Shown: positions 8,192 to 47,988 of the stretch, one piece after another
Layout of the letters: each line of letters begins with the position of its first letter
Position numbering within the stretch: the stretch's first letter is position 1
Assembly: GCA_964555775.1 (NCBI GenBank)
Contig: CAZKTW010000001.1
Coordinates: 1 to 57,772, forward strand
Source: an uncultured Bifidobacteriaceae bacterium
Lineage (GTDB): Bacteria > Verrucomicrobiota > Verrucomicrobiia > Limisphaerales > UBA11358
Length of the DNA: 57,772 nucleotides
Direction of reading: 5' to 3'
The notes under the pieces: model-generated
Seen by the model: only the letters and a program-made list of their open reading frames with translations
What the model was told of the DNA's origin: nothing
The model's database searches: none
Position numbers and translations under genes: made by a program

Positions 8192-9127
8192 ATGAAAGAC
8201 ATGACGGATTGGAAGGTCCCCAAGTGGCCGTTTCTGCTTGGTGACGCGCTGTTAATGGTTTTCGGATATTTTTTCGTCCTGCATTCGCCGCTGCCGATCC
8301 GCCATTGGGAAATTGCCGCCGGCTGTGTGGCCGTCGGCGCGGCCCTGGGCGTGATCCCATTCATCCTCGATTATCGCGCCATGGGCAGGGTCATGGAAGT
8401 CAACGCGCTCGGCGCGGTGGCTGACAAAATTGAAAACCTGGAGAAACTCGCCGGGCAAATCAGCGCCGCCACCAGCCAATGGGCAGCCGTTCAGGAATCC
8501 GCCCAGGGCCAGGCGGAAAAAACCGCGTTGGCCGCCAAGGCCATCGCCGACCGGATGACCACTGAAGTCATTGAATTCAGCGACTTCATGAAAAAGATGA
8601 ACGACACCGAGAAGGCCACGCTCAAGCTGGAGGTGGACAAATTGCGGCGCGGTGAAGCGGAATGGCTCCAAGTGCTCGTGAACATCCTCGACCACGTATT
8701 TGCGCTCCACGCCGCCGCCATGCGTTCCGGCGACGTGAAATTTGCCGGCCCCATCACGACTTTCCAGAATGCCAGCCGGGATATTGCCCGCCGGGTCGGG
8801 CTCACGTCGTTTGCCGCCGGGCCAAATGAACCGTTCAATGCCGAACGCCATCAGGTCGCCGAGGGCAAGGAAAATCCGCCGGCTGGAGCGGCCGTCGCGG
8901 AGACGGTTGGTCCGGGATACACATTTCAAGGGAAGCTGTTGCGCCCGGCGCTGGTGCGGCTTCGTGACGCGAACCCGCCCGCGCAACCCCAAACTGCAAA
9001 AATTGCGACTGTCGCAACCCCCGCCCCGGCAAAAAAACCAGCCGAAAAAACGGCCACCCCGCCTGTTTCCGCCGCTCCGGCGAAAGAGAAGGCCGAAGAC
9101 CCGTTTTTGCTCGAACCCGAAGATTAA
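8192..9127 (+). CDS. Membrane-anchored GrpE-like domain protein
   Basis: Two N-terminal transmembrane helices and a coiled-coil middle. The C-terminal block LVNILDHVFAL...GLTSFAAGPNEPFNAERHQVA...VGPGYTFQGKLLRPALVRL parallels the GrpE pattern LLPVLDNLERAL...G...G..FDP..H.A...GY.L.gRvLRPA.V.V. The tail is Pro/Ala/Lys-rich. Confidence 0.5.
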   Translation: MKDMTDWKVPKWPFLLGDALLMVFGYFFVLHSPLPIRHWEIAAGCVAVGAALGVIPFILDYRAMGRVMEVNALGAVADKIENLEKLAGQISAATSQWAAVQESAQGQAEKTALAAKAIADRMTTEVIEFSDFMKKMNDTEKATLKLEVDKLRRGEAEWLQVLVNILDHVFALHAAAMRSGDVKFAGPITTFQNASRDIARRVGLTSFAAGPNEPFNAERHQVAEGKENPPAGAAVAETVGPGYTFQGKLLRPALVRLRDANPPAQPQTAKIATVATPAPAKKPAEKTATPPVSAAPAKEKAEDPFLLEPED

Positions 9128-12100
9128 GTTGGTTCCGTCCGCCGGGCCGCGAGAAAATGCAGCCAGCGGGCACTGACCGGCCGCGCATAGATTTTTTCCA
9201 GCGCCTGCGCGTAGAGCTTCAATTGCGGCGTGTAGGCTTTGATCTTGCCCGGCAAGACGCCCGGGCGGATTTCGTCGGTCTTGAAATCCACCAGCCAGAT
9301 TTCCTTTGGCAACAACACCATCAGGTCCGCCACGCCCTGCACGACCACAAATTCGTTTTCCAATCCTGGCGCGGATTTTACGCCTGTAATGGCTTCCAGT
9401 TCGGCCGGGCTGAAACGCGCGGTGAAGGCCAGTTCCCGCCGGACATTGGTGGCCAGGCCGCGGATTTTCTGGCCGGTCGCCGATCCCCAGAAGGCCGCGA
9501 TGTCCTCGAGGTTCAAAGCCGCGGTTTCATTTGCCGACAAGACATTTTCCCGCTCCAAGCGATTGGCTTCCGCGGCGAGGGTTTCGGAGCTGCCGGTCTT
9601 TTCCAGGGCGACGAATTGCAGAAATTTGTGGTGGGCCCGCCCGGCGTCCGCGGCGGAAAGTCCGGGGCGTGGTTTCCGCCGCGCCGCCGGCACAAAATCA
9701 GAAGCCGGAAAAAGGCGCTCCGCTTCATCATCCCCTTCATCCGCCGCCCGGCGCCGCAGCGCGGTGACGGATGACTTGGCCGTCCGTGTTGTCGCCGCGC
9801 CAAATGGATATTTCCACGCCAGAGTTTCGTGGAGTTTGCGGCCGGTTTTGTAGTCCAGCGGCGGTAATTCCTTTTGCACCCGGTGGTCCACGGGTTCGTC
9901 CGCCAGTTCCGCCTCATCCACGAGGCGCCAGCGCAGATGCGGCAGTTCACCTTCGGTCGCGCTTTGGATTTTGGACTTTGGACTTTGGACCTGAGTCTGC
10001 GCGAACCACAACCCCAGCCAGTCGGCATAACTTTTCGACGCGATGATGGATCGGGTGGAAATGGCCGCCGGTCCGTTCCAAAGTGATTCCCATTTTGATT
10101 CCGAAACGGCTGCGGTCAAAATCAACGTGTCGCGAGCGCGGGTGAGCGCAACGTACAGCAGTCGCAGTTCTTCGCCCCATTGTTCGCGGCGTTGATGCTG
10201 TTGCGCGAGCCAGTGCGGCAGGCTCGGATACCGCCGGCCGGTGTGCGGCGGCTTGATCCGAGGACACAAGCCAAAGGTTTCGTCAAAAATGATTTCACCG
10301 CGCACGTCTTGCGTGTTGAAGGGCTTCGCCAGGTCGGTCACCGCCACAATGGGAAATTCCAGGCCCTTGCTTTGGTGAATGCTCATGAGTCGCACGGCGT
10401 TTTCATCCGCCACCGCCGCGACGTCCGGTTCCACCCCGGCTTCGCGTTGGGCCTCGATAAATTTCAGAAACCGGAACAGCCCCTGCCGTTGGAACTGGTC
10501 GAACTTTTGCGCGAGCCCCAAAAATCGTCCGACATTGGCCTGCCGCTGGGCGCCGCGCGGACGCGTCAGCAGCCAGTCGGCGTAGTGCGTTTCCACCAGC
10601 ACGCTTTCCAGGCATTGCGACAGCGAAACCTGGCGGGCCAACTGCCGCCAATGGGCAAATCGTTTCAGAAATCTGGCAATTTTTTGAACCGTCTCAACCA
10701 CCATCCCGCATTCCGCCCGCTGAGTTCGATTCAGTGCCGTCCAAAAGTGGCCGCTGGCGGCCAGCCGCACCTGCGCCAGTTCATCAAGGGACAAACCAAC
10801 GAGCGGGGAACGCAGGACAGCGATAGCCGGCACGTCCTGCAATGGATTGTCCAGCAGTTGCAACAGGCTGAGCAAATCCATGATTTCGCTGCCGTCGTAA
10901 AACCGGCCGCGCTCGACAACCAGCGGCACCCCGGCGCGCTCAAATTCCTTCGCGTAAATTTCCGCCTTGCCCGACGGCGCCCGCAGCAAAACCGCCATGT
11001 CGCGCCATTCGACGGGGCGGAACTTCTTTTCCGCCGCATCCCAGACCTCATGTTTTCCGGATTCCAACTGTTTCAGTCGCTGGGCGAGCGATCGCGCCTC
11101 CCGCTCCGTCTCCGGCAAGTCCGCCGGATCATCCGCGCTGGCGGCATCGCCGGGTTCGGCGTCGGAGCGGCCCTTTTTGAATCGCAAAATCAATTCCGCG
11201 CGTGGGGCGGCGTCCTGGGCTACCCCCAGCTCCGCGCGTTGCCGGGCGGCGCCGAATTGCAGCCGGGCCTCGACACCGTAGCGCACGCCGCCAATTTCTT
11301 CGCGCATGAGCGGCTCAAAGACGGAATTGACAAAGTTGAGCAGGGCCTCGCGACTGCGGAAATTTTCGGCGAGCGAAATCGTTTGCCCGTTTTTCCCGCG
11401 CCAGTTTTGGGCGTAATCGCGGAAAATTTTCGGATCGGCCAGCCGGAAACGGTAGATGCTCTGCTTCACGTCGCCGACGAGGAACCGGTTGCTGCCGGGT
11501 TCGTTTTGCGCCTTATCCCCCCCTCCTCCCCGAAGGAGGAGAGGGACGGGGTGAGGAGGCAGATTGTTCGCGAGTTCAAAACCCCTCTCCCCAACCCTCT
11601 CCCCGCTTTGGCGGGGAGAGGGAGAAGAACTGTCGCGCGAAAGTGCGGTAATGATTTTGTCCTGCGCAGCGTTGATGTCCTGGTATTCGTCCACAAAAAC
11701 GAACCGGATTTTCTGGCGCCAGCGTCCGGCAATGGGCGTGGGTAGGTCCGCGCCTGAATCCCAGAGCAGCTGCAACGCAAATTGTTCCAGATCGTGAAAA
11801 TCCAGGACGCCGTCATCGCGCTTGCGCGCGGCATACCGGGCGGAAAAATTCTTCGTCAATTGCAGCAATGCGTCCATGTGACCGCGCAGCCAGCCCCAAT
11901 CCTCGGCCAATGGATCGCGGCCATTTTCAAGGGCGGCGAGCGAATGCAGGAATGCCGCATCGGCGAAAATCGTTTCGAGCGGCTTGCGAAACAGGGTTTT
12001 GCGTCTTGCCGGCCAGTTGCCATCGGCGGAAAGGATTTGCCCCAGAATTTCGGCTGCGTCGGTGCGTGAATAGTTTTCCGGCAAACGCCGGAGAAGGCCC

Positions 12101-12864
12101 GCCAACTCAACGGCTTTCTCGTTTGCTGACGGAGGGCCGGAGGCCGGAGACCCGAGTTCTTCCAGCTGCGCCAGCCATTCATCACGCCAGTCGCGGATGG
12201 CATCGAGCAGCCATTGGCGCCATTCGTCCGGCTCGGAGGCCGTGAATTTTTCCATCTGGCGCGTCAGCCAGCCGTCGGCATCGGGCCGGGTTTGGGCGTA
12301 ATGGTGCAGGCGCAACACAAGCTGTCGGATCGTCTGGTCGCGGCCGTTGCCGTAAATCCGGATCAAATTTCGGACCGCGTCCGCCAGCCGGTTTTGTCCG
12401 GCGTAATGGTCCTGCAATTCCTCCCCGAGCGTTTCGTCGGCGAGCAGGCGGGCCTCGCCTTCGTCGAGCACGGCCAGTTGCGGGTCGAGGCCGAGTTCGT
12501 GGAAGTGTTCGCGCACCAGCTGGAGGCAAAAGCTGTGGAGGGTGCCGATATGCGCGGTATCAAAAAGCGCGAGTTGCTCCGCCCAGCGCGGGACCTCCGG
12601 TTCGACACGAAATTTTTCCTCCAGTTGTTCGCGGAGTCGCCGGCGCATTTCGGCGGCCGCGGCCTCGGTGAAGGTGACGATGAGAATTTCCCCCAGCGAA
12701 GCCTGCGGCTGTTCCGAGCAGAGGCAGTGCAGGCAGCGTTCAACGAGCGTATGCGTTTTGCCTGTGCCGGCGCCAGCCATGACCAGCACGTTGCCGCGCG
12801 CGGTGACGGCCTGCCGTTGCGTCGGCGTCAGGTGGTCTCCGGTTTCAGCGCGCGGCGGTTTCAT
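9124..12864 (-). CDS. UvrD/AddA-type ATP-dependent helicase with C-terminal PD-(D/E)xK nuclease domain
   Basis: Walker A (AGAGTGKT), motif II (VDEYQD), motif III (VGDVKQSIYRFR), a C-terminal nuclease motif (GVADLMVL...WLVDFKTD...YTPQLKLY). I take the ATG at 12864 (MKPPRAETGD) as the start. The longer track ORF, reaching 13227, would run through the repeat-filled intergenic region and overlap radC. Confidence 0.85.
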   Translation of the reverse strand: MKPPRAETGDHLTPTQRQAVTARGNVLVMAGAGTGKTHTLVERCLHCLCSEQPQASLGEILIVTFTEAAAAEMRRRLREQLEEKFRVEPEVPRWAEQLALFDTAHIGTLHSFCLQLVREHFHELGLDPQLAVLDEGEARLLADETLGEELQDHYAGQNRLADAVRNLIRIYGNGRDQTIRQLVLRLHHYAQTRPDADGWLTRQMEKFTASEPDEWRQWLLDAIRDWRDEWLAQLEELGSPASGPPSANEKAVELAGLLRRLPENYSRTDAAEILGQILSADGNWPARRKTLFRKPLETIFADAAFLHSLAALENGRDPLAEDWGWLRGHMDALLQLTKNFSARYAARKRDDGVLDFHDLEQFALQLLWDSGADLPTPIAGRWRQKIRFVFVDEYQDINAAQDKIITALSRDSSSPSPRQSGERVGERGFELANNLPPHPVPLLLRGGGGDKAQNEPGSNRFLVGDVKQSIYRFRLADPKIFRDYAQNWRGKNGQTISLAENFRSREALLNFVNSVFEPLMREEIGGVRYGVEARLQFGAARQRAELGVAQDAAPRAELILRFKKGRSDAEPGDAASADDPADLPETEREARSLAQRLKQLESGKHEVWDAAEKKFRPVEWRDMAVLLRAPSGKAEIYAKEFERAGVPLVVERGRFYDGSEIMDLLSLLQLLDNPLQDVPAIAVLRSPLVGLSLDELAQVRLAASGHFWTALNRTQRAECGMVVETVQKIARFLKRFAHWRQLARQVSLSQCLESVLVETHYADWLLTRPRGAQRQANVGRFLGLAQKFDQFQRQGLFRFLKFIEAQREAGVEPDVAAVADENAVRLMSIHQSKGLEFPIVAVTDLAKPFNTQDVRGEIIFDETFGLCPRIKPPHTGRRYPSLPHWLAQQHQRREQWGEELRLLYVALTRARDTLILTAAVSESKWESLWNGPAAISTRSIIASKSYADWLGLWFAQTQVQSPKSKIQSATEGELPHLRWRLVDEAELADEPVDHRVQKELPPLDYKTGRKLHETLAWKYPFGAATTRTAKSSVTALRRRAADEGDDEAERLFPASDFVPAARRKPRPGLSAADAGRAHHKFLQFVALEKTGSSETLAAEANRLERENVLSANETAALNLEDIAAFWGSATGQKIRGLATNVRRELAFTARFSPAELEAITGVKSAPGLENEFVVVQGVADLMVLLPKEIWLVDFKTDEIRPGVLPGKIKAYTPQLKLYAQALEKIYARPVSARWLHFLAARRTEPT
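9962..9989. repeat. Four tandem heptamers (ctttgga ttttgga ctttgga ctttgga) inside the helicase CDS
   Basis: Read directly. On the minus strand the tract encodes QSPKSKIQS. Confidence 0.85.
11511..11632. repeat. GC-rich palindromic element (same family as 3978-4115) inside the helicase CDS
   Basis: ggaggagagggacggggtgaggagg (11535-11559) resembles 4090-4115. A perfect 12-bp stem joins ccctctccccgc (11595-11606) and gcggggagaggg (11611-11622) across the loop tttg. Confidence 0.8.
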
Positions 12865-18754: not shown

Positions 18755-18887
18755 GGTGACGCTCCTTTCAGGTTCATGGTTGGTGAATCCTCTCTTCCGC
18801 AGGGCATTTTCCACCGGTTGCTAATTTGTTCAACCTTTTTCCGTCGCGCTTCGGATTGATTTCAGCTCGGAGAGCTTGTCTGAACAT

Positions 18888-18985
18888 GTAGCGGCGGGCC
18901 TCCCGGCCTGCCTTAGAGGGAGGCATCCTGCCGCCCGGAAGAATCGCCGCCATGACGCCGCTGCCCGGGATTTCAATGGCGTTAA
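18888..18985. repeat. Dispersed repeat of about 97 bp, copy 1 (gtagcggcgggcctcccggcctgcc...ggcatcctgccgcccggaagaat...)
   Basis: About 88-90% identical to 20108-20204 and in the same orientation. Confidence 0.85.
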
Positions 18986-18998
18986 TGATTGCGAACGG

Positions 18999-20030
18999 TT
19001 AACCCGTCCATTGCGGATTGCGCGTGGTGGCGTCAAACCCGGTGGAGGTTTTGAACTGTTCGTAGCTGCCCGAGGCCGCGGCGTCGGCGGTCCGGGCGAG
19101 CAGGGCCGAAACCTGCTCCTGGCTCATCGGCTTGAACGTGCGCGCTGCTTCGACCGCCTGGTCGAGAATTTCCAGGCTGTCCATGCCGGTGATCACCGTC
19201 GAGGTCGGCAGGTTCAAGGCGTAGTGCAGGCAATCGATGGCGCTGACCGTTTTGCTGCGCAGGATTGCCCCAAAGCCCAGGGACTTCATGCCCAGTACGC
19301 CGATGCCTTCCTTGACTAGGCCGGGCACGACCTGGTGTTCGAAACTGCGGAAATGTGCGTCCATGACGTTCAACGGCATTTGCACGGCGTCGAAGCGGAA
19401 TTTGTGTTCGGCCGCCACTTCAAGCATGCGCAGGTGGATGGCCGGATCCTTGTGGCCGGTGAAACCGATGAAGCGGACCTTGCCGGCCTGCTTTGCCTCC
19501 AACACCGCTTCCAGCGCGCCCCCGGATGCAAAAATGGGATCGGGGTCCGTCCGGCGGACAATTTCATGAAACTGCAACAGGTCCACCCGGTCCGTTTGCA
19601 GCCGTTTGAGCGACTCATCAATTTGCCTGGCGGCCAGCGCCTTGGTGCGGCCGTCAATCTTCGTCATCAGGAAAACCTTCTCGCGGTATCCGTCACGCAG
19701 GGCCTTGCCCATGCGCACTTCGCTCCCGCCGTCATTGTAATCCCAGCAATTATCCATGAAGGTTATCCCGCGATCAATGGCGCTGCGGATGATGCGCAGG
19801 CTTAATTCTTCATCTCGTTGCGTGCCGATGTGATAGCCGCCCAGGCCGATGGCGGAAACCTTCTCGCCGGTGCGGCCCAGCGGGCGGAGGGGCAACTCAT
19901 TTTTCGTTTCTGCCCCCCAAAGTTCCGGCCCGACGGCCAACGTTGCGCCGGCCGCCACCGCCATTCTTACGAATTCCCGGCGGTTGACATTCTGGTTCAC
20001 GGTTTGGGAGAGCTCACCCGGTCTTTTCAT
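18999..20030 (-). CDS. Aldo/keto reductase with twin-arginine signal peptide
   Basis: N-terminus NRREFVRMAVAAGATLAVG, then AKR motifs (GITFMDNCWDYNDG, GFTGH). 343 aa. Confidence 0.88.
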   Translation of the reverse strand: MKRPGELSQTVNQNVNRREFVRMAVAAGATLAVGPELWGAETKNELPLRPLGRTGEKVSAIGLGGYHIGTQRDEELSLRIIRSAIDRGITFMDNCWDYNDGGSEVRMGKALRDGYREKVFLMTKIDGRTKALAARQIDESLKRLQTDRVDLLQFHEIVRRTDPDPIFASGGALEAVLEAKQAGKVRFIGFTGHKDPAIHLRMLEVAAEHKFRFDAVQMPLNVMDAHFRSFEHQVVPGLVKEGIGVLGMKSLGFGAILRSKTVSAIDCLHYALNLPTSTVITGMDSLEILDQAVEAARTFKPMSQEQVSALLARTADAAASGSYEQFKTSTGFDATTRNPQWTG

Positions 20031-20107
20031 GCAGCATATCTATTTCCATCTCCCGGTTTCCGCAACTCGAAAAGGACGTGCTGAGGTTTGAGAGCTGGTT
20101 TGAAAAA

Positions 20108-20204
20108 GTAGCGGCGGGCCTCCCGGCCTGCCGTAAAGGGCGGCATCCTGCCGCCCGGAAGAATAGCCGCCATGACGCGCTGCTTGGGATTTTAAAGGCG
20201 TTAA
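20108..20204. repeat. Dispersed repeat of about 97 bp, copy 2
   Basis: See 18888-18985. The two copies flank the aldo/keto reductase gene in direct orientation. Confidence 0.85.
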
Positions 20205-37704: not shown

Positions 37705-37932
37705 ATGAGCGTGGCGACCATCCAGAATGAGTTGTTGAATTTGCCAGCAACCGAGCGCGCCCGGTTGATTGATTTTTTGTGGGACTCGCTTTCCGAGCCG
37801 GAATTGAAGTTGCGCGAAACGGCCTGGGCGGCGGAGTCGGAGCGGCGGATTGATGCTTACGAGTCCGGCCTGCTGAAAGCGCGGGATGCCCAGGCGGTAT
37901 TTGAGGAATTGAAAAAGGGACTGCGGAAGTGA
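37705..37932 (+). CDS. Addiction-module antitoxin (Unstab_antitox / ParD-like component)
   Basis: LLNLPATERARLIDFLWDSL...WAAESERRIDAYESG is the typical pattern. It overlaps the toxin start. Confidence 0.85.
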   Translation: MSVATIQNELLNLPATERARLIDFLWDSLSEPELKLRETAWAAESERRIDAYESGLLKARDAQAVFEELKKGLRK

Positions 37933-38219
37933 TGGTGCGGTTCACCTCGCCTGCGGAACGTGAACTCAAGGAAGCAGTGGAGTTCTACGAATCGGCCCAG
38001 GAAGGATTGGGGACAGATTTTCTCACGGAAGTGGAGACGGTGACCCGGTTGATAGAATCCCATCCGATGGCATGGACGCCGATGTCGCCCAGAACCCGGC
38101 GCTGCCGGTTGCACAGATTTCCGTTTGGTTTGTTCTATCAGGTGCGGTCGGATGAAATTTTGATCGTGTCGGTCATGGATTTGCGCCGCGATCCCAAGCG
38201 TTGGGAGCAATATCTTTAG
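37929..38219 (+). CDS. Type II toxin, RelE/ParE family
   Basis: FTSPAERELKEAVEFY...FPFGLFYQVRSDEILIVSVMDLRRDP is a ParE-like pattern. 96 aa. Confidence 0.85.
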   Translation: MMVRFTSPAERELKEAVEFYESAQEGLGTDFLTEVETVTRLIESHPMAWTPMSPRTRRCRLHRFPFGLFYQVRSDEILIVSVMDLRRDPKRWEQYL

Positions 38220-41207: not shown

Positions 41208-42545
41208 ATGAAAACGAAACATTATTTGGCCGGCATCTCCCGTCGCGAAGCGATGCGCCGGGGTTTGTTGGGCACGGCGGGATTGTGGCTGGCTAGCGGG
41301 CTGGATTTTCCGGCCTTTGCCGCCGAGCCGGGGCCGGCCAAAGCCAAAGCCGTCATCCAAATCTGGCTGTGGGGCGGGCCATCACACCTGGACACCTTCG
41401 ATCCCAAACCGGAAGCGGGCAATGATTACTGCGGGCCGTTCAAAACGCCGGTTGAGACCAACGTGCCCGGAATCAAAATCTGCGAACTGCTGCCGCTGCT
41501 GGCAAAACAGGCGGACAAATATTCCCTCATCCGCAGCATGACTCACGGCAACAACGGCCACGAAACCGCGGCTTACATGGTCCAGACCGGACGGCCACCC
41601 GGCGGACGTGAGGTCTTTCCCTCGGTCGGCGCGGTGGTATCGCTGTTCAAGGGTTACGGCGCGGGATACCAGGGATTGATCCCGCCTTACATCGTGTTGA
41701 CCGAACCCCAGGGGCGGTTTTCCGAGGCGGGATTTCTGGAGTCGCGTTACAAACCGTTCGCCACGGGCGGCGATCCGGCGAAGAAGCCATTCGCGGTGGA
41801 AGGTGTTATCGCCCCGGGCATTTCCGATCAGCGCCAAAAAGACCGGCGCGAGCTGTTGCAAAAATTGAACACGCTCGAGCACGCCCTGCCGGGCGACGCA
41901 CAACTGGCGGCGTCCAACCGGGCCGAACAACAGGCGTACGAAATGATTCTGGGCGACGCCGGGAAGGTTTTTGATCTGTCGCAGGAAAAGGATGAACTTC
42001 GGACCCAGTATGGAAAAAACACGTTTGGACAGTCCTGTCTGGCGGCGCGGCGTCTGGTTGAAAAGGGAGTTCCCTACGTGACCATCAATTTCAAAGGCTG
42101 GGACACGCATAAACAGAATTTTCAAGAGATGCGCCGGTTGCTGCCGGAACTGGACAAGGGTTTGGCGACATTGCTCCAGGATTTATCCGACCGCAAACTG
42201 CTCGACAGCACCATCATCTGGTGCGGCGGCGAATTTGGCCGCACGCCGAAGGTCCAGTGGGAAGCGCCGTGGAACGGCGGGCGCGGACATTATGGCAAGG
42301 TATTTTCGGCGCTGGTTGCCGGCGGCGGGTTCAAGGGTGGTCACGTGGTCGGAGCCTCGGATGAGCACGGTGAAGAAGTAAAGGAACGGCCGGTGTATCC
42401 AGCGGACCTCATCGGCAGCATGTATGAATTGCTCGGCATTGATGGCAACGCGAAGCTTCCCAACCCCGAGGGTCTCGACCTGCGGGTGCTGCCCGTGACG
42501 GCGGATGGCGTGAAATCCGGCGGACTCCTGAAGGAAATCATGTGA
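41208..42545 (+). CDS. DUF1501 (sulfatase-like) protein with Tat signal
   Basis: SRREAMRRGLLGTAG... then GGPSHLDTFDPKP and GRTP motifs. This is the usual partner of DUF1549/1553 genes. Confidence 0.88.
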   Translation: MKTKHYLAGISRREAMRRGLLGTAGLWLASGLDFPAFAAEPGPAKAKAVIQIWLWGGPSHLDTFDPKPEAGNDYCGPFKTPVETNVPGIKICELLPLLAKQADKYSLIRSMTHGNNGHETAAYMVQTGRPPGGREVFPSVGAVVSLFKGYGAGYQGLIPPYIVLTEPQGRFSEAGFLESRYKPFATGGDPAKKPFAVEGVIAPGISDQRQKDRRELLQKLNTLEHALPGDAQLAASNRAEQQAYEMILGDAGKVFDLSQEKDELRTQYGKNTFGQSCLAARRLVEKGVPYVTINFKGWDTHKQNFQEMRRLLPELDKGLATLLQDLSDRKLLDSTIIWCGGEFGRTPKVQWEAPWNGGRGHYGKVFSALVAGGGFKGGHVVGASDEHGEEVKERPVYPADLIGSMYELLGIDGNAKLPNPEGLDLRVLPVTADGVKSGGLLKEIM

Positions 42546-42559
42546 GCGCCGATTTGCTT

Positions 42560-44929
42560 ATGAGATTTCCCTTCAAACTTGCAGTCGCCGACGTGAGGAG
42601 ACTCATTATTTTTGCGGTTTTGACAGTTAGAGCCCGCTTACGCCGGCTCCCAGGAACGACGGGTTCAACGCTCGTTATTGTCCTGGCCATTGTTTCGTCT
42701 GCCGGCGCGCAAAACGCGCCGCATCTTGGCTATGTTTACCCCGCCGGCGGACGGCAGGGCACGACGTTTCAGGTAACGGTGGGCGGACAGTTTCTGGTCA
42801 ATGTCACCAACGCGTTCGTCTCCGGCGCGAGCGTCCAGACGAAGGTCATCGAATATAACCGGCCTCTGAATCAGAAGGAATTCAACGATTTGAGGGACCG
42901 GTTGAAGGCGTTGCAGGAAAAGAAGCAGGACGCGCGGCGGGCCCCGAACTCCACAAATGTTTGGACGACCGTGGACGAAAGGGAGTTCGCCGAAATCAGG
43001 GCCAGGATCATCAAGAACCCGCCAAACCGGCAGGGCAATCCGGCCATCGCCGAAACAGTCATCGTCCAGGTCACACTGGCCACGAACGCCGACCCGGGCG
43101 ACCGGGATTTAAGGCTGGAAACACCGGGCGGGTTGTCGAACCCGCTCATCTTTCGTGTCGGGCAACTGCCGGAATTTTCCCGACCGGCGGCAAAGGCCAT
43201 CAACCCGGACCTGAACAATCTTCTGGAAAGACTGGGCAAAAAACCTGCCACGAACACGGCATCCGAGACGAGCATCACGCTACCGGCGGTGGTGAACGGC
43301 CAGATCATGCCCGGCGGTGTGGATTGGTATCGGTTTCAGGCGCGCAAGGGACAACGGTTGGTCGTTGCCGTCAGCGCGCGGGAATTGATTCCGTACCTGG
43401 CCGACGCCGTGCCGGGCTGGTTTCAGGCCGCCGTTTCACTGCACGATGCGCAGGGCAAGGAATTGAATTACGCCGACCATTTCTGGTTTCATCCGGACCC
43501 GGTTCTCAGCTGTGAAATCCCCAAGGACGGGATCTATCTGGTTCAGGTGCGGGATTCCCTTTATCGCGGTCGTGAAGATTTTGTTTATCGAATTGCGCTG
43601 GGCGAACTGCCACTGGTGACCGGCATCTTTCCGCTGGGCGGCCCGGTGGGCGCCCCAACCCCGGTTGAACTGACCGGCTGGAACCTGCCGGTGACCAATC
43701 TTACGGAGGATGCCGCGGGCAGGAAGCCGGGCATTTATCCGCTGTCCACGCCCGCCGACGAACAAATTTGCAACCACCAGCCATTTGCTCTGGACACGTT
43801 GCCGGAATGCCTGGAGCAGGAACCGAACGATTCGCGGGAAACTGCCCAGGCCGTCACGCTGCCCGTCATCGTCAACGGGCGCATTGATCATCCCGGTGAC
43901 TGGGACGTGTTCCGGTTTGGGGGCAGGACCGGCGACCCGGTGGTGGCGGAAATTTATGCGCGCCGGCTCGATTCCCCGCTGGATTCGGTGCTCAAGCTGA
44001 CCGACGCCGCCGGCAAACAACTGGCGTTCAATGACGATCACGAAGACAAAGGTTCAGGGCTGAACACGCACCATGCCGACTCCTATATCAGCACGGTTCT
44101 GCCGACGAATGGAACCTTTTATCTCTGGCTCGGCGACGCCCAGCACAAGGGTGGTCCGGAATATAGTTATCGTCTGCGCATCAGTCCGCCGCAGCCGGAT
44201 TTCGCGTTGAGAGTTGTTCCGTCCAGCCTCAGTGTTCGCGCCGGCGGGAGCTTTCCGCTCACCGTTTACGCCTTGCGCAAGGACGGATTCACCAACCAGA
44301 TCACGCTGGTTTTGGATGGCGCGCCGGCCGGGTTCAAATTGACGGGTAATTCCATCCCGGCAAGTCAGGATAAAATCCAAATCACGTTGACCACTCCGCC
44401 AATGGCGTTGCCTGACCCTGTCAGCCTGAACATCGAGGGCAGCGCGATGAATCAAGGACAGACGCAACTGCGAAAGGCCGTGCCCGCCGAGGACATGATG
44501 CAAGCGTTCGCCTATCGTCATCTGGTTCCGTCCAAGGAACTGGACGTCGTCGTGTTGGGACGCGCAAATACCCGGGCGACGGTGAAACTTCTCAGTGCGA
44601 CCCCGGTGAAAATTCCCGCCGGCGGGACCACGCGTATTCAAGTCGGCCTGCTGGCGCCGCGGATCGCGGAGCGAGCGCAGTTTGAGTTGAGTAATCCTCC
44701 GGAGGGGATTGTGATCCAAAGTGTGTCGCCGGTCCGCGACGGCCTGGAAATTGTGCTGCAAACCGATGCCGCCAAGGTCAAACCCGGGTTCAAGGGAAAC
44801 CTGATCATCAACGGTTACGCGCCCCGGCCAGCTGAACCGGGAACGCCCAAGCCGAAAGGAAACAACAATCAACGAGTGTCCTTGGGTACCCTGCCCGCCA
44901 TTCCATTCGAAATCATCCCGCCTTCGTGA
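42560..44929 (+). CDS. Secreted protein with PPC (pre-peptidase C-terminal)-like domains
   Basis: Two segments resemble PPC domains: VNGQIMPGGVDWYRFQARKGQRLV and VNGRIDHPGDWDVFRFGG...DSVLKLTDAAGKQLAFNDD. The start is at ATG 42560 or GTG 42542; no canonical start codon lies closer to the hydrophobic signal-like segment. Confidence 0.6.
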   Translation: MRFPFKLAVADVRRLIIFAVLTVRARLRRLPGTTGSTLVIVLAIVSSAGAQNAPHLGYVYPAGGRQGTTFQVTVGGQFLVNVTNAFVSGASVQTKVIEYNRPLNQKEFNDLRDRLKALQEKKQDARRAPNSTNVWTTVDEREFAEIRARIIKNPPNRQGNPAIAETVIVQVTLATNADPGDRDLRLETPGGLSNPLIFRVGQLPEFSRPAAKAINPDLNNLLERLGKKPATNTASETSITLPAVVNGQIMPGGVDWYRFQARKGQRLVVAVSARELIPYLADAVPGWFQAAVSLHDAQGKELNYADHFWFHPDPVLSCEIPKDGIYLVQVRDSLYRGREDFVYRIALGELPLVTGIFPLGGPVGAPTPVELTGWNLPVTNLTEDAAGRKPGIYPLSTPADEQICNHQPFALDTLPECLEQEPNDSRETAQAVTLPVIVNGRIDHPGDWDVFRFGGRTGDPVVAEIYARRLDSPLDSVLKLTDAAGKQLAFNDDHEDKGSGLNTHHADSYISTVLPTNGTFYLWLGDAQHKGGPEYSYRLRISPPQPDFALRVVPSSLSVRAGGSFPLTVYALRKDGFTNQITLVLDGAPAGFKLTGNSIPASQDKIQITLTTPPMALPDPVSLNIEGSAMNQGQTQLRKAVPAEDMMQAFAYRHLVPSKELDVVVLGRANTRATVKLLSATPVKIPAGGTTRIQVGLLAPRIAERAQFELSNPPEGIVIQSVSPVRDGLEIVLQTDAAKVKPGFKGNLIINGYAPRPAEPGTPKPKGNNNQRVSLGTLPAIPFEIIPPS
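42581..42650. repeat. Bipartite dispersed repeat (gcagtcgccgacgtgaggagactc ... agagcccgcttacgccggctcc) inside the 5' end of the CDS
   Basis: Same family as 17785-17855. Confidence 0.65.
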
Positions 44930-44930
44930 G
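44901..44930. repeat. Direct repeat, left copy (ttccattcgaaatcatcccgccttcgtgag), attL-like
   Basis: Covers the last codons and the stop of the 42560-44929 gene. 28/30 identical to 46359-46388. Confidence 0.9.
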
Positions 44931-44952
44931 CCGCTAAAGAATAATTTTCCGA

Positions 44953-44981
44953 TTGAATAAAAACAAGAATGCCATTATTAT
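44953..44981 (+). promoter_or_regulatory. Sigma70-like promoter TTGAAT-N17-TATTAT ending 9 nt before the ATG at 44991
   Basis: Read directly. The geometry implies a leaderless or near-leaderless transcript for the RHH-like gene. Confidence 0.3.
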
Positions 44982-44990
44982 GGAAATGTT

Positions 44991-45215
44991 ATGGCACGCT
45001 CCGAAAACGCACTTAAATCGAAGCAGGTGACGGTTTCGGTAAGCCCACAAATTTATGATTTGCTCACAGAGCTCTCAAAAAGCGGATTCACCGCCAGAAC
45101 AGAAGCGGCTGTGGCCGAAGAAATGATTAGGAAAGGGCTTAATTCCGATGGCCTTATCAGTGAAATCCTGCGCAGCAAAGTGGCCAAGAAGTCTAAAAAA
45201 ATGAAAGTTGTGTGA
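44991..45215 (+). CDS. Small putative ribbon-helix-helix-like DNA-binding protein
   Basis: 74 aa. KQVTVSVSPQIYDLLTELSK...TEAAVAEEMIRKGL fits a beta-alpha-alpha layout, followed by a basic tail. This is a weak, pattern-only call. Confidence 0.4.
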   Translation: MARSENALKSKQVTVSVSPQIYDLLTELSKSGFTARTEAAVAEEMIRKGLNSDGLISEILRSKVAKKSKKMKVV

Positions 45216-45406
45216 ATAAGTTCTTGGATGCCGCAAAAACAAAGCGCCAGATGACTCTTTCCGGCAACGAATAAGTCGTTAGCAAACTGGCTAAGAGATG
45301 GTCAATAAATGGGCGACCATAAAATGAAAAATAAAACGGTTGGTAAGTCCAAGAACTTAATCTTTTACACACAATAATTTCTGGTAAAACAAAGGAACTG
45401 AAAGCC

Positions 45407-45862
45407 ATGAACCTGAACGATTCATTTGAAAAAGTTAGAGAATTCCATGTCGCCTTCGGACATAGGTCTGCCGGCAAGCCCACGATGCTGCCAGAAGAAC
45501 GGGTTGAGAAGCGTTACAATTGGATGCTGGAGGAACTGGAAGAACTGCGTAATGCCAAAACCACCCACGATCAAGCCGATGCGGTAATTGATTTAATGTA
45601 TTTTGCCTTGGGAACGCTGGTTGAAATGGGCGTTAAGCCGGGACCGTTATTTGACATCGTTCACGGCGCAAACATGAAAAAACTGTGGCCAGATGGGAAA
45701 GTTCACTATGCGGAAGATGGAAAGGTGGTTAAGCCTCCTACTTGGAGTCCGCCAGAACCGCAACTGTTGCACGAAATAGAACGCCAATTTAGGGAATCAA
45801 ATGGCCATCACGTTCAAAGAGTTCGAGTCCAAAGCTCAGCAAGTAGATGCGCATCCGCATAG
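45407..45862 (+). CDS. All-alpha NTP pyrophosphohydrolase (MazG-like, COG4696 type)
   Basis: VREFHVAFGH...RYNWMLEELEELRNA...DQADAVIDLMYFALGT...IVHGANMKKLWPDGKV...DGKVVKPPTW matches the E..EE..E / D..D metal-binding helices of this family. Confidence 0.7.
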   Translation: MNLNDSFEKVREFHVAFGHRSAGKPTMLPEERVEKRYNWMLEELEELRNAKTTHDQADAVIDLMYFALGTLVEMGVKPGPLFDIVHGANMKKLWPDGKVHYAEDGKVVKPPTWSPPEPQLLHEIERQFRESNGHHVQRVRVQSSASRCASA

Positions 45863-46112
45863 TGGCGTTAACCCGCGCGAATACGCTTTGACCGGCCTTG
45901 TTGAGGCGGCCGGAAAGTTTAATAAGGTTTTAGAGGCGAATCTATCAGCAGAGAATCTTTCTCCCGAGGATCGCCAAAAGGCAATTGATAATGCCTGGAA
46001 ACTGCTTTGGTTTTTAAGCGTGGCCTGTAATTCTGCCAAAATTTCTTTAGAAGAAGCGGCCCAAGCCGGAATTACAAATTTGGATAATATCGGAGATGAT
46101 CTTCTGCCTTAG
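45801..46112 (+). CDS. MazG-like all-alpha protein, apparently degenerate in acidic motifs
   Basis: EYALTGLVEAAGKFNKVLE...AIDNAWKLLWFLSVACNSAKISLEE parallels the MazG-like pattern L.gEaGEl...ElGDvlwyl...gi.lee, but with several Glu/Asp positions replaced. It overlaps the preceding ORF by 62 nt. Confidence 0.5.
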   Translation: MAITFKEFESKAQQVDAHPHSGVNPREYALTGLVEAAGKFNKVLEANLSAENLSPEDRQKAIDNAWKLLWFLSVACNSAKISLEEAAQAGITNLDNIGDDLLP

Positions 46113-46358
46113 CAACAATCTACGCCAGCATGAATCAGGCCTCAGGCAAGAGGGCGAAGGCTGGCCTTTAACCGCGATTTGCGCGGGAATGACTGAGAAA
46201 GCCGCCGCGCAATCAAAACGGCAATGCTCCTTACTGTTGAATGCCGGTGTGTTGCAGTCAATCCAGCAACGTGATACAACCACCTTTATGAGCCGCCTCT
46301 GGAGCGTTTCATCCGCGCGGCTTTGAAGGCCGGTGACACCACTTTGCCCGCTAACTTA

Positions 46359-46388
46359 TTCCATTCGAAATCATCCCGCTTCCGTGAG
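46359..46388. repeat. Direct repeat, right copy (ttccattcgaaatcatcccgcttccgtgag), attR-like
   Basis: 28/30 identical to 44901-44930. It still reads IPFEIIPLP-stop. The heptamer tgcccgc lies a few nt upstream of both copies. Confidence 0.9.
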
Positions 46389-46461
46389 TTCATATATGGT
46401 TCGATTTTCCGGTCCAAAAAACCGGATTGCATTGAAACCTACTGTCGGATAAGAACAGTTC

Positions 46462-47988
46462 ATGTTAGCGATGGTCTGTTCCGCGGCGCTTAATGGTATT
46501 GAAGCGTATCCGGTCGAAGTCGAGGTCAATGCCGGTTGGGGCGACACCCTCGTCGTCATCGTCGGCCTGCCGGACGCCGCCGTGAAGGAATCGCGCGACC
46601 GCGTCTCCACCGCGCTCACCAATTCCGGGTTTAAATTCCCGATGGGGCGCACCACCATCAACCTCGCGCCGGCCGACGTGAAAAAGGAGGGACCGAGTTT
46701 CGACCTGCCCATTGCGCTGGGCATGCTGGCTGCCGGCGAACAAATCGAGACCGACCAGCTCGACAATTTCATCATCGTGGGTGAACTCGCACTGACCGGC
46801 GCGGTGCGTCCGTGCAAAGGCGTTTTGCCGGTCGCCTTGCGGGCCCGGGCCGACGGCAAAACCGGCGTGCTGGTACCGGCCGAAAATGCCGCCGAAGCCG
46901 CCGTCGTCGATGGTTTGCAGGTGATTCCCGTCCAAAATCTGCGCGAAGCCGCGGGCTTTCTCGAAGGCGAAATTAAAATTGCTCCCACCCGGGTGGATAC
47001 CGCCAAAATCTTCGAACGGCCGCAGGAGGACGACCTGGATTTTGCCGAGGTCAAGGGCCAGGAAAACGTGAAGCGCGCCCTGGAAATCGCCGCCGCCGGC
47101 GGACATAACGCACTGCTTATTGGCCCGCCGGGCACCGGCAAATCCATGCTGGCCAAACGGCTGCCGACAATTCTACCTCCGCTCACCCTGGATGAAGCGC
47201 TCGAGACCACGAAGATCCACAGCATCGTGGGTTTGCTCGCGCCGGGTCAGGCGCTGGTCACCCGCCGGCCGTTTCGCACGCCACACCACACGGCGAGCGA
47301 CGCCGGCCTGCTCGGTGGCAACGTCAATCCCACTCCCGGCGAAATTTCCCTCGCCCACAACGGCGTTTTGTTTCTGGACGAACTGCCGGAGTTCAAGCGC
47401 AGCGTGCTGGAGACCATGCGCCAGCCGCTCGAAGACGGGCGCGTGACCATTTCACGCGCGGCGGGCACGATGACCTTTCCGTCGCAATTCATGCTCATCG
47501 CGGCGATGAACCCGACGCCGGATGGCAAAATGCCGCACGAATCGAGAAGTTCGCCGCGCGAAATTCAGAACTATCTGGGCCGGATCTCCGGGCCGCTGCT
47601 CGACCGGGTGGATTTGCACGTGGAAGTGCCCGCGGTGAAGTTCCGGGAAATCGCCGGTGACCGCACGGGTGAAACCTCGGCGCAAATCCGCGACCGGGTC
47701 GTGGCCGCGCGCCGACGCCAGCACGATCGGTTCAAAGCCAAACCCAAGATCACCTGCAACGCCCGGATGGGCCCGCGCGAATTGAAGCAATTCTGCGAAC
47801 TGGATGAAGCGACCAAGGAGCTGCTGCAAATTGCGATGGCCGATTTGAATCTGAGCGCCCGGGCGTACGACCGGATTTTGAAGGTGGCCCGGACGATTGC
47901 CGACCTGGCTGGCTCGGAAAAAATCCAGAGCGACCATATTTCGGAAGCGATTCAATACCGCTCTCTCGACCGGCAATTGTGGGCGTGA
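46462..47988 (+). CDS. comM: YifB/ComM family Mg-chelatase-like AAA+ ATPase
   Basis: N-terminal Lon-protease-like domain, Walker A (GPPGTGKS), and the [18 protein letters not shown] and C-terminal [18 protein letters not shown] motifs. Confidence 0.92.

Follow-up and report, generated by a model that had tools for sequence, protein, structure and literature searches.

A cargo-only islet without a mobility gene, bracketed by a duplicated gene end, in an uncultured member of the Limisphaerales (Verrucomicrobiota)

Introduction

Small integrated elements that settle at the end of a gene and leave that gene readable are known from several bacterial systems, some of which encode no recombinase themselves. 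Here we examine a locus of this kind: a 1.43-kb AT-rich islet of three small genes, bracketed by direct repeats, that lies between a PPC-domain gene and comM in an uncultured member of the Limisphaerales (Verrucomicrobiota). The whole stretch of DNA analysed, which we call the window, is 57,772 nt long (contig CAZKTW010000001.1). The islet had been singled out by a reading of the letters without database searches (the sequence-only reading), which took it for the product of site-specific insertion into the 3′ end of the upstream gene.

Among the closest described systems are the cis-mobilizable elements (CIMEs) related to ICESt1 and ICESt3, known from accretions of integrative and mobilizable elements and integrative and conjugative elements. 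Like them, the islet is small, carries only cargo, and lacks integration and transfer genes; its flanking direct repeats take in the 3′ end of the target gene, whose integrity is preserved by a copy of the gene end that came with the element. Unlike them, it has no integrase-bearing relative with the same site among the loci found for its clade, no tandem accretion is visible, and its host belongs to the Limisphaerales rather than the Firmicutes. Because no cognate integrase-bearing element was found, the likeness to CIMEs breaks down on one tested feature. A second group, the gene-end-restoring islands (for example dusA-specific or comM-targeting), also insert in a coding end, supply a replacement end, and have repeats of tens of nucleotides; the islet's neighbour comM is itself repeatedly struck in relatives. 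Such islands carry their own integrase beside one attachment (att) site, whereas the islet has none and measures only 1.4 kb.

The cargo recalls the iMazG/MazG enzymes found on mobile cassettes and phages: one islet protein (M1) is of PRA-PH/MazG type and belongs to a family widespread in phages, and a second (M2) is predicted to share its fold but lacks the canonical acidic metal-binding motif. Integrative mobile elements exploiting Xer (IMEX), which use the host XerCD recombinase at dif, resemble the islet in being integrase-less, in having direct repeats of the target, and in a recombinase that is, or for the islet would be, encoded elsewhere. A dif-like site, however, has 28 nt and two arms of dyad symmetry, whereas the islet repeat is a coding gene end in which a central TTCGAA palindrome is all that can be read from the sequence, and membership among the IMEX was rejected since no XerC/XerD dyad arms are present in it. 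Nor does the islet belong with transposons, insertion sequences (ISs), or miniature inverted-repeat transposable elements (MITEs), given that its ends carry no inverted repeat, the duplication is at least 31 nt long (vs. 2–15 nt), and no transposase was found in the window ORFs (open reading frames) scanned. An integron gene cassette is likewise excluded by the three genes, the promoter-like site of the islet's own, and the lack of an attC-like structure or intI in the window.

Results

Where does the native end of the PPC-domain gene now lie? The host genes and repeats are arranged as follows.

42542..44929, + strand: PPC-domain gene, 795 aa (ORF and Pfam), third gene of a PSCyt2/PSD1–DUF1501–PPC triad, with its last 10 codons inside the left repeat
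44900..44930, + strand: left direct repeat (attL-like), which gives the PPC gene its present C-terminus ...IPFEIIPPS and stop
44931..44964, + strand: diverged, AT-shifted continuation of the left repeat, resembling the native spacer at 46389–46422 (21/34 identical)
46358..46388, + strand: right direct repeat (attR-like), the displaced native PPC gene end, which reads IPFEIIPLP-stop and ends 73 nt before the comM start at 46462
46389..46461, + strand: native PPC–comM spacer, which aligns with the spacer in L005, L107, and L108/L109
46462..47988, + strand: intact comM (Mg-chelatase-like ATPase; Pfam), the right-hand neighbour of the islet

The two repeat copies are 31 nt long—one base more than the sequence-only reading had allowed—and identical at 29 of 31 positions, with an exact 22-mer core, ATTCCATTCGAAATCATCCCGC. 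Allowing up to three mismatches, the 57.8-kb window contains this core at exactly two places, whereas none of 100 dinucleotide-preserving shuffles contains it. A dispersed repeat of the repetitive extragenic palindromic (REP) type, one of the outcomes that would have undone the initial interpretation, was rejected: the core is present twice in the window and once per relative, each time at the gene end. A TGCCCGC upstream of both copies, which had been put forward as a shared feature, is not significant alone (p ~0.06 to 0.34) and was rejected as part of the repeat. Downstream of the core a weaker collinear similarity (44944–44964 vs. 46404–46422, p ~0.004) suggests that the duplicated segment may reach ~65 nt, of which the 31-nt core is well kept. 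An extension of the repeat to ~44976 was rejected, because the sequence from 44959–44966 on belongs to the conserved promoter module of the islet's regulator gene. Identity is uneven along the duplication (29/31 in the core vs. 21/34 beyond; Fisher p = 0.003), and so sharp a drop beyond the core speaks for an att-like site, or for a segment of homeologous pairing, and against an evenly decaying, once-identical duplication.

The islet is foreign DNA inserted into the 3′ end of the PPC-domain gene, as its deviating base composition indicates. Its GC content is 0.464 vs. 0.588 for the window, in which it is the sole extended tract below 0.50. GC at third codon positions (GC3) of the three islet genes is 0.45–0.51, as against 0.726 ± 0.034 for 30 host genes (host minimum 0.67), that is, ~6–8 SD below the host genes. 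The AT-richness noted at first sight is borne out by both measures.

How does the junction look in genomes that lack the islet? We collected PPC orthologues, both from 80 GTDB species and from metagenome contigs, and fetched 113 comparison loci, denoted here by L-numbers (L085 is a contig carrying the same islet as the window). The PPC proteins of the 80 GTDB genomes are 54–84% identical to that of the window, the closest being 80–84% identical, and ComM is 92–94% identical in relatives. Each relative has one copy of the gene-end motif only. In L009, L015, and L107 the gene end is followed by comM ~110–140 bp later and the islet is absent; in L108/L109 a single gene-end copy is followed by the native spacer, as far as the contigs extend, and a different insert replaces the start of comM. 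After its stop codon the right copy in the window runs on as GTGAGTTCAT..., then ...AAAAAACCGGATTGCATTG...GGATAAGAACAGTTCATG, which corresponds to native gene-end and spacer sequence of L106, L011, L005, L107, and L109, and the PPC gene of L010 ends in IPFEIIPLP, the same as the right copy. The continuation of the left copy has no match to the native gene end or spacer; from 44959–44966 on, where DNA similarity to the regulator modules of other genomes begins, it is a promoter module conserved in unrelated genomes. That the right copy runs on into native flanking sequence identifies it as the displaced original gene end, as the sequence-only reading had supposed. The original end has thus been shifted 1458 bp downstream, and the present gene is completed, with its frame restored, by insert-borne sequence. 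Exact matches to the islet proteins came from seven metagenome contigs that are 99.8–100% identical to the window, have the same structure, and represent one population; the window ComM sequence has no exact match on record. Samples containing the strain are SRR8465028, SRR8543846, ERZ27245386/399/402, and JGI 3300028556/3300028800.

Neither the scan of window ORFs (plausible long ORFs) nor a precomputed Pfam table for 35801–56112 yielded a domain of an integrase or transposase, and the islet ORFs contain no recombinase, relaxase, or transposase domain, in agreement with what had been read from the letters. The islet ends have no terminal inverted repeats. A tRNA or tmRNA as target was rejected, as the window contains neither.

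What does the islet carry? Its features, from the left repeat to the right, are these.

44953..44981, + strand: sigma-70-like promoter (TTGAAT, 17-nt spacer, TATTAT), a consensus match only, ending 10 nt before the regulator start codon
44991..45215, + strand: 74-aa putative ribbon-helix-helix (RHH)/Arc-like regulator (PHROG 3431 Arc-like repressor, weak, E = 0.0024)
45216..45406, + strand: AT-rich spacer between the regulator and the hydrolase pair, with a 15-nt inverted repeat (45214–45228 / 45348–45362)
45407..45862, + strand: M1, 151-aa all-alpha nucleoside triphosphate (NTP) pyrophosphohydrolase of PRA-PH/MazG type, DR2231-like (PF01503, phrog_671, and PDB matches)
45801..46112, + strand: M2, 103-aa predicted MazG-fold protein with a degenerate acidic motif (AlphaFold2 and Foldseek), overlapping M1 by 62 nt
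46113..46357, no strand: islet tail, 245 nt, GC ~0.52, no assignable function; dubious 76-aa ORF at 46096–46326

The promoter-like signal and three small genes of the sequence-only reading are all present, and the labels given to the genes fare unequally. That M1 is of MazG type is well documented: it matches PF01503 at 4.9e-17 (62.6 bits vs. a cut-off of 21.3), phrog_671 at 4e-32, PDB entry 3nl9 at 2.6e-28, and the MazG-like enzyme DR2231 at 3e-08, and its family was matched in 423 phage records at up to 51% identity. M2 has no sequence-family match in Pfam, PHROG, NCBIfam, or PADLOC and gives only a weak profile match to YpjD (E = 0.91); its AlphaFold2 model (pLDDT 80), however, has only MazG-type proteins as its top Foldseek matches (iMazG 2q5z first, DCTPP1, BcMazG, YpjD, and RS21-C6; TM 0.6–0.75), which suggests a MazG fold. 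The RHH label of the regulator is plausible, its single match being the PHROG entry. The 74-aa protein has no Pfam, NCBIfam, or PADLOC match, and its PDB profile matches are spurious, being to PPR repeats. In its AlphaFold2 monomer (pLDDT 69) an extended strand precedes helices, the order seen in RHH proteins, with no fold match; the structure search gave no confirmation of an RHH fold because the monomer model is of low confidence.

M1 looks catalytically competent. In M2 a conserved G-K-F stands in place of the first acidic metal-binding motif, as two alignments indicate, one of them with YpjD; lacking the canonical acidic motif, M2 may be a noncatalytic partner or pseudo-enzyme. The 62-nt overlap of the two genes (45801–45862, in different frames) is kept in every cassette found (the window, L088, L091, L095, L098, and L099), which suggests translational coupling or possibly a frameshift product. 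To our knowledge this paired, overlapping arrangement has not been described before. The cargo looks like a self-regulated operon that likely hydrolyses noncanonical or modified (d)NTPs, in pool sanitation or in a phage-related role. Three points speak indirectly for such an activity: the relationship of M1 to DR2231, a dUTP-preferring MazG-like enzyme; a dCTP-deaminase-like gene inside the cassette of L088; and a NUDIX gene that takes the pair's place behind the regulator in L111.

The islet tail has no Pfam, PHROG, PADLOC, or Rfam match and no similarity to any fetched locus, and is not significantly structured (fold z-scores −1.8 and −0.5). The noncoding parts of the islet as a whole are similar to no fetched locus; Rfam has no match in 44700–46600, and the PADLOC 2.0 defence models match none of the four islet ORFs.

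Do the cargo genes travel together? Two points that go beyond the sequence-only reading emerged from the comparison loci, of which the first is that the islet is a mosaic of two separately travelling modules, the hydrolase pair and the regulator. In other genomes (L088, L091–95, L098, and L099) the M1–M2 pair lies upstream of dnaK, at 69–79% nucleotide identity, with varying left neighbours and with a small regulator of a different family preceding the pair. Cassette GC is below that of at least one flank in all four loci measured (L085, which is the same islet, L088, L091, and L095). Regulator homologues in other contexts are 52–93% identical overall. The closest (93–94% aa) is in L113, in an unrelated context beside a Tag glycosylase gene; that of L111 (60–61%) stands ahead of a NUDIX hydrolase and next to a GmrSD-type gene; and that of L108/L109 (73% aa, ~75% nt) occupies the same PPC–comM locus but is inverted, has its start precisely where the comM start codon lies, and precedes a 49-aa hydrophobic peptide in place of M1–M2. 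The islet proteins have no relatives in viral contigs, and M2 is found in none of the phage or plasmid collections.

Two of these loci may be described in full. L088 (4731–9402) has, in order, an IS1595 transposase, a 63-aa regulator, a 92-aa ORF, the dCTP-deaminase-like gene, two ORFs, and M1–M2. L111 (169–3767) has a GmrSD_C gene, the window-type regulator, the NUDIX hydrolase, and a 95-aa ORF.

The second point concerns the target: the PPC–comM junction is a general insertion hotspot in the clade. Inserts lie between PPC and comM or in the start of comM in L005 (400 bp of GC-rich repeats), L104 (850 bp with a dispersed 150-nt repeat), L006 (a 3.7-kb gene), L010 (a 2.7-kb AT-rich leucine-rich repeat [LRR] gene), and L016 (4.7 kb), and comM is interrupted or displaced in L006, L010, L107, and L108. 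Two of the comparison loci also show duplicated gene ends, with no integrase in view at either. In L006 the 3.7-kb insert lies between two copies of an 88-nt direct repeat (8552–8639 and 12357–12444) that duplicates the first 29 codons of comM. The native upstream spacer is retained beside the left copy, along whose length unique AT-ward changes are scattered; the right copy shows 97–98% identity to comM of the closest relatives, L005 and L009. In L071 the 3′ end of a PPC homologue recurs as an 84-nt direct repeat (8198–8281 and 9969–10052; 87% identity, including a perfect core of 32 nt), which brackets a 1.77-kb insert with one gene of extracytoplasmic-function (ECF) sigma and HEAT-repeat type on the opposite strand.

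Other details of the junction were recorded in passing. An island that includes PLD, ArdC, GmrSD, and Type ISP genes interrupts comM at about residue 220 in L107 (6850–14297); the AT-rich LRR gene interrupts it near codon 30 in L010 (2378–5255); and in L108/L109 (L109 ~1–1775) an AT-rich insert with an inverted window-type regulator replaces comM at its start codon. A spacer motif, GCGCTCTTTGCG..TTTTTGCGGCAA.GGACGGCGCGCACG, is common to several relatives between PPC and comM (L005 8270–8668, L006 8400–8490, L107 6720–6790, and L104 9522–9670) and is absent from the window. The L104 spacer contains one copy of the dispersed 150-nt repeat, of which two more copies lie in the same locus.

Elsewhere in the window, a ParE-toxin/Unstab_antitox pair lies at ~37705–38219, between ETF genes and an L-PSP gene (from the gene table of the identical contig L085). 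An aldo/keto-reductase gene (18999–20039, − strand) is bracketed by a GC-rich, palindrome-containing direct repeat (18870–18985 and 20090–20204) of ~116–140 nt that is 89% identical, with the exact 25-mer GTAGCGGCGGGCCTCCCGGCCTGCC in both copies. The same 25-mer, with two mismatches, occurs at L071 10071–10095 (− strand), just past the right repeat of that locus, and the reductase-flanking repeat looks like a dispersed REP/MITE-like family.

Discussion

How did the islet reach the end of the PPC gene? Its geometry—native arm, core, and element on one side, and element arm, core, and native arm on the other—points to the product of one reciprocal crossover between a circle and the chromosome. 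We infer that the horizontally acquired 1.43-kb islet entered by such a Campbell-type event, in which a circular DNA with an imperfect copy of the PPC 3′ end would have joined the chromosomal gene end within the 22–31 nt of identity. The left hybrid site would then consist of the native gene and an element-borne tail that restores the last codons and the stop, and the right hybrid site of element DNA followed by the native tail and spacer that lead to comM. The enzyme would most likely have been a recombinase of the tyrosine or serine class that either acted in trans or has been lost since, and the islet would now be a passive, CIME-like element whose cargo forms an operon with its own promoter, comprising the RHH-like regulator and two translationally coupled MazG-fold proteins. 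This account predicts an empty-site junction CCTGCCCGCC-ATTCCATTCGAAATCATCCCGC-TTCCGTGAGTTCATATATGG and a circle junction GCCCGCTAACTT-ATTCCATTCGAAATCATCCCGC-CTTCGTGAGCCGCTAAAG. We give att-type Campbell insertion that left a CIME-like islet about an even chance of being right, an estimate that spans both the decayed and the moved-in-trans variants and overlaps with the prophage-stump explanation discussed below. Of the original attL/attR proposal, the foreign insertion with a displaced gene end holds, and the site-specific recombinase does not have the same backing, for no cognate integrase or attP was found.

Several observations weigh against att-type insertion. Neither a cognate integrase nor an attP-bearing circle or phage nor a second element at the core was found in the window ORFs scanned or in view among the 113 fetched loci, and the exact 22-mer is absent from Joint Genome Institute (JGI) metagenome contigs and from viral contigs. 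The empty-site check, which the sequence-only reading had proposed, succeeded at the level of relatives with a single gene end and a nearby comM and yielded no strain-level empty allele; all seven islet contigs are one population, and the relatives in the PPC comparison are at most ~84% identical. Other M1–M2 cassettes have no flanking repeats above chance, so the cargo is not always tied to an att-like site. An identity of 22 nt is about the minimum length for RecA-mediated recombination, and the crossover need therefore not be site-specific. Finally, both repeat copies share two synonymous variants (ATT CCA) that are absent from nearly all relatives, a pattern more readily understood if one and the same lineage supplied the sequence of both.

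The same Campbell geometry would result if the host's general homologous recombination had made the crossover on a short homeologous stretch, which we regard as unlikely but deserving of serious thought. At the end of this large gene family no nucleotides are better conserved than those of the last codons (IPFEIIP), and the DNA of a relative with the cassette beside a PPC-type gene end could consequently pair and cross over there: the 22-mer region is kept within 4 mismatches in 14 relatives that are only 54–84% identical overall. The lineage-specific synonymous variants common to both copies and the lack of an integrase anywhere in view fit this explanation, as do L071 with its 32-nt perfect core and L006, both integrase-less inserts with 84–88-nt duplicated gene ends. 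Speaking against it, no donor locus was found with the cassette beside a PPC-type gene end, and M1–M2 elsewhere adjoins dnaK; 22 nt is marginal for RecA-dependent exchange; and the circular intermediate is hypothetical.

A sub-case of att-type insertion, which we think rather improbable, is that the islet is what remains of a larger prophage or integrative element that had an integrase, internal deletion having spared only a few genes and the two att sites. The CIME literature describes exactly such an origin, the M1 family is common in phages (the 423 records and phrog_671), and the unassignable 245-nt tail, of intermediate GC, adjoins the right repeat where an integrase gene often sits. No integrase fragment or phage gene remnant was detected in 46113–46357, however, the same compact sets of genes are found in other places in small, self-contained cassettes that lack phage genes, and M2 is missing from the phage and plasmid collections.

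Could the repeats instead be a target-site duplication? The islet would then have been captured at a staggered double-strand break or by template switching, with ~30–65 nt filled in and the two copies diverging afterward. Derived synonymous variants shared by both copies are what copies of one native sequence should have, the scattered AT-ward changes of the left comM copy in L006 are those of a decaying duplicate, and no mobility gene is present. Yet the divergence is uneven (2/31 vs. 13/34 differences, p = 0.003), the right copy, no longer coding, should decay freely and is nearly intact, and there are no terminal inverted repeats. In addition, duplications of 30–90 nt far exceed those of any transposase we know of, which counts against this explanation, and we judge it quite unlikely.

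That nothing was inserted—the genes being old residents of the PPC–comM spacer and the repeat a product of local duplication or rearrangement—is very improbable indeed: the regulator homologue at the L108/L109 junction (73% aa, ~75% nt) has diverged about as much as flanking host genes (77–80% nt), but it is inverted, lies at the start of comM and not at the end of PPC, and stands among other neighbours; several similarly distant relatives have no regulator; GC3 is still ~6–8 SD under that of the host; and the closest homologue (93–94% aa) stands in an unrelated genome context.

A bolder generalization would be that, across the lineage, single genes or small operons insert at conserved gene ends independently of any recombinase, with target duplications of 30–90 nt. 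Three independent cases at this gene pair could be cited for it, the window (31–65 nt, PPC 3′ end), L071 (84 nt, PPC 3′ end), and L006 (88 nt, comM 5′ end), and we judge it quite unlikely, as we do target-site duplication. If true and general, it would be an undescribed route of gene gain in Verrucomicrobiota that leaves the target gene intact.

What does the islet mean for the biology of its host lineage? Current views of mobile elements are not overturned by it: the islet is a further example of the CIME-like or small gene-end-restoring islands, in a poorly studied phylum. It offers a clean case, in an uncultured soil or peat lineage of Verrucomicrobiota, of a tiny cargo-only islet at a gene end without a mobility gene, and its comparison with other genomes shows that the regulator and enzyme modules of such islets are reshuffled between genomes. 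A new lead is the conserved, overlapping pair of predicted MazG-fold genes, one of them an apparent pseudo-enzyme. The locus is of value chiefly as a starting point for surveying insertions that are flanked by repeats and lack an integrase.

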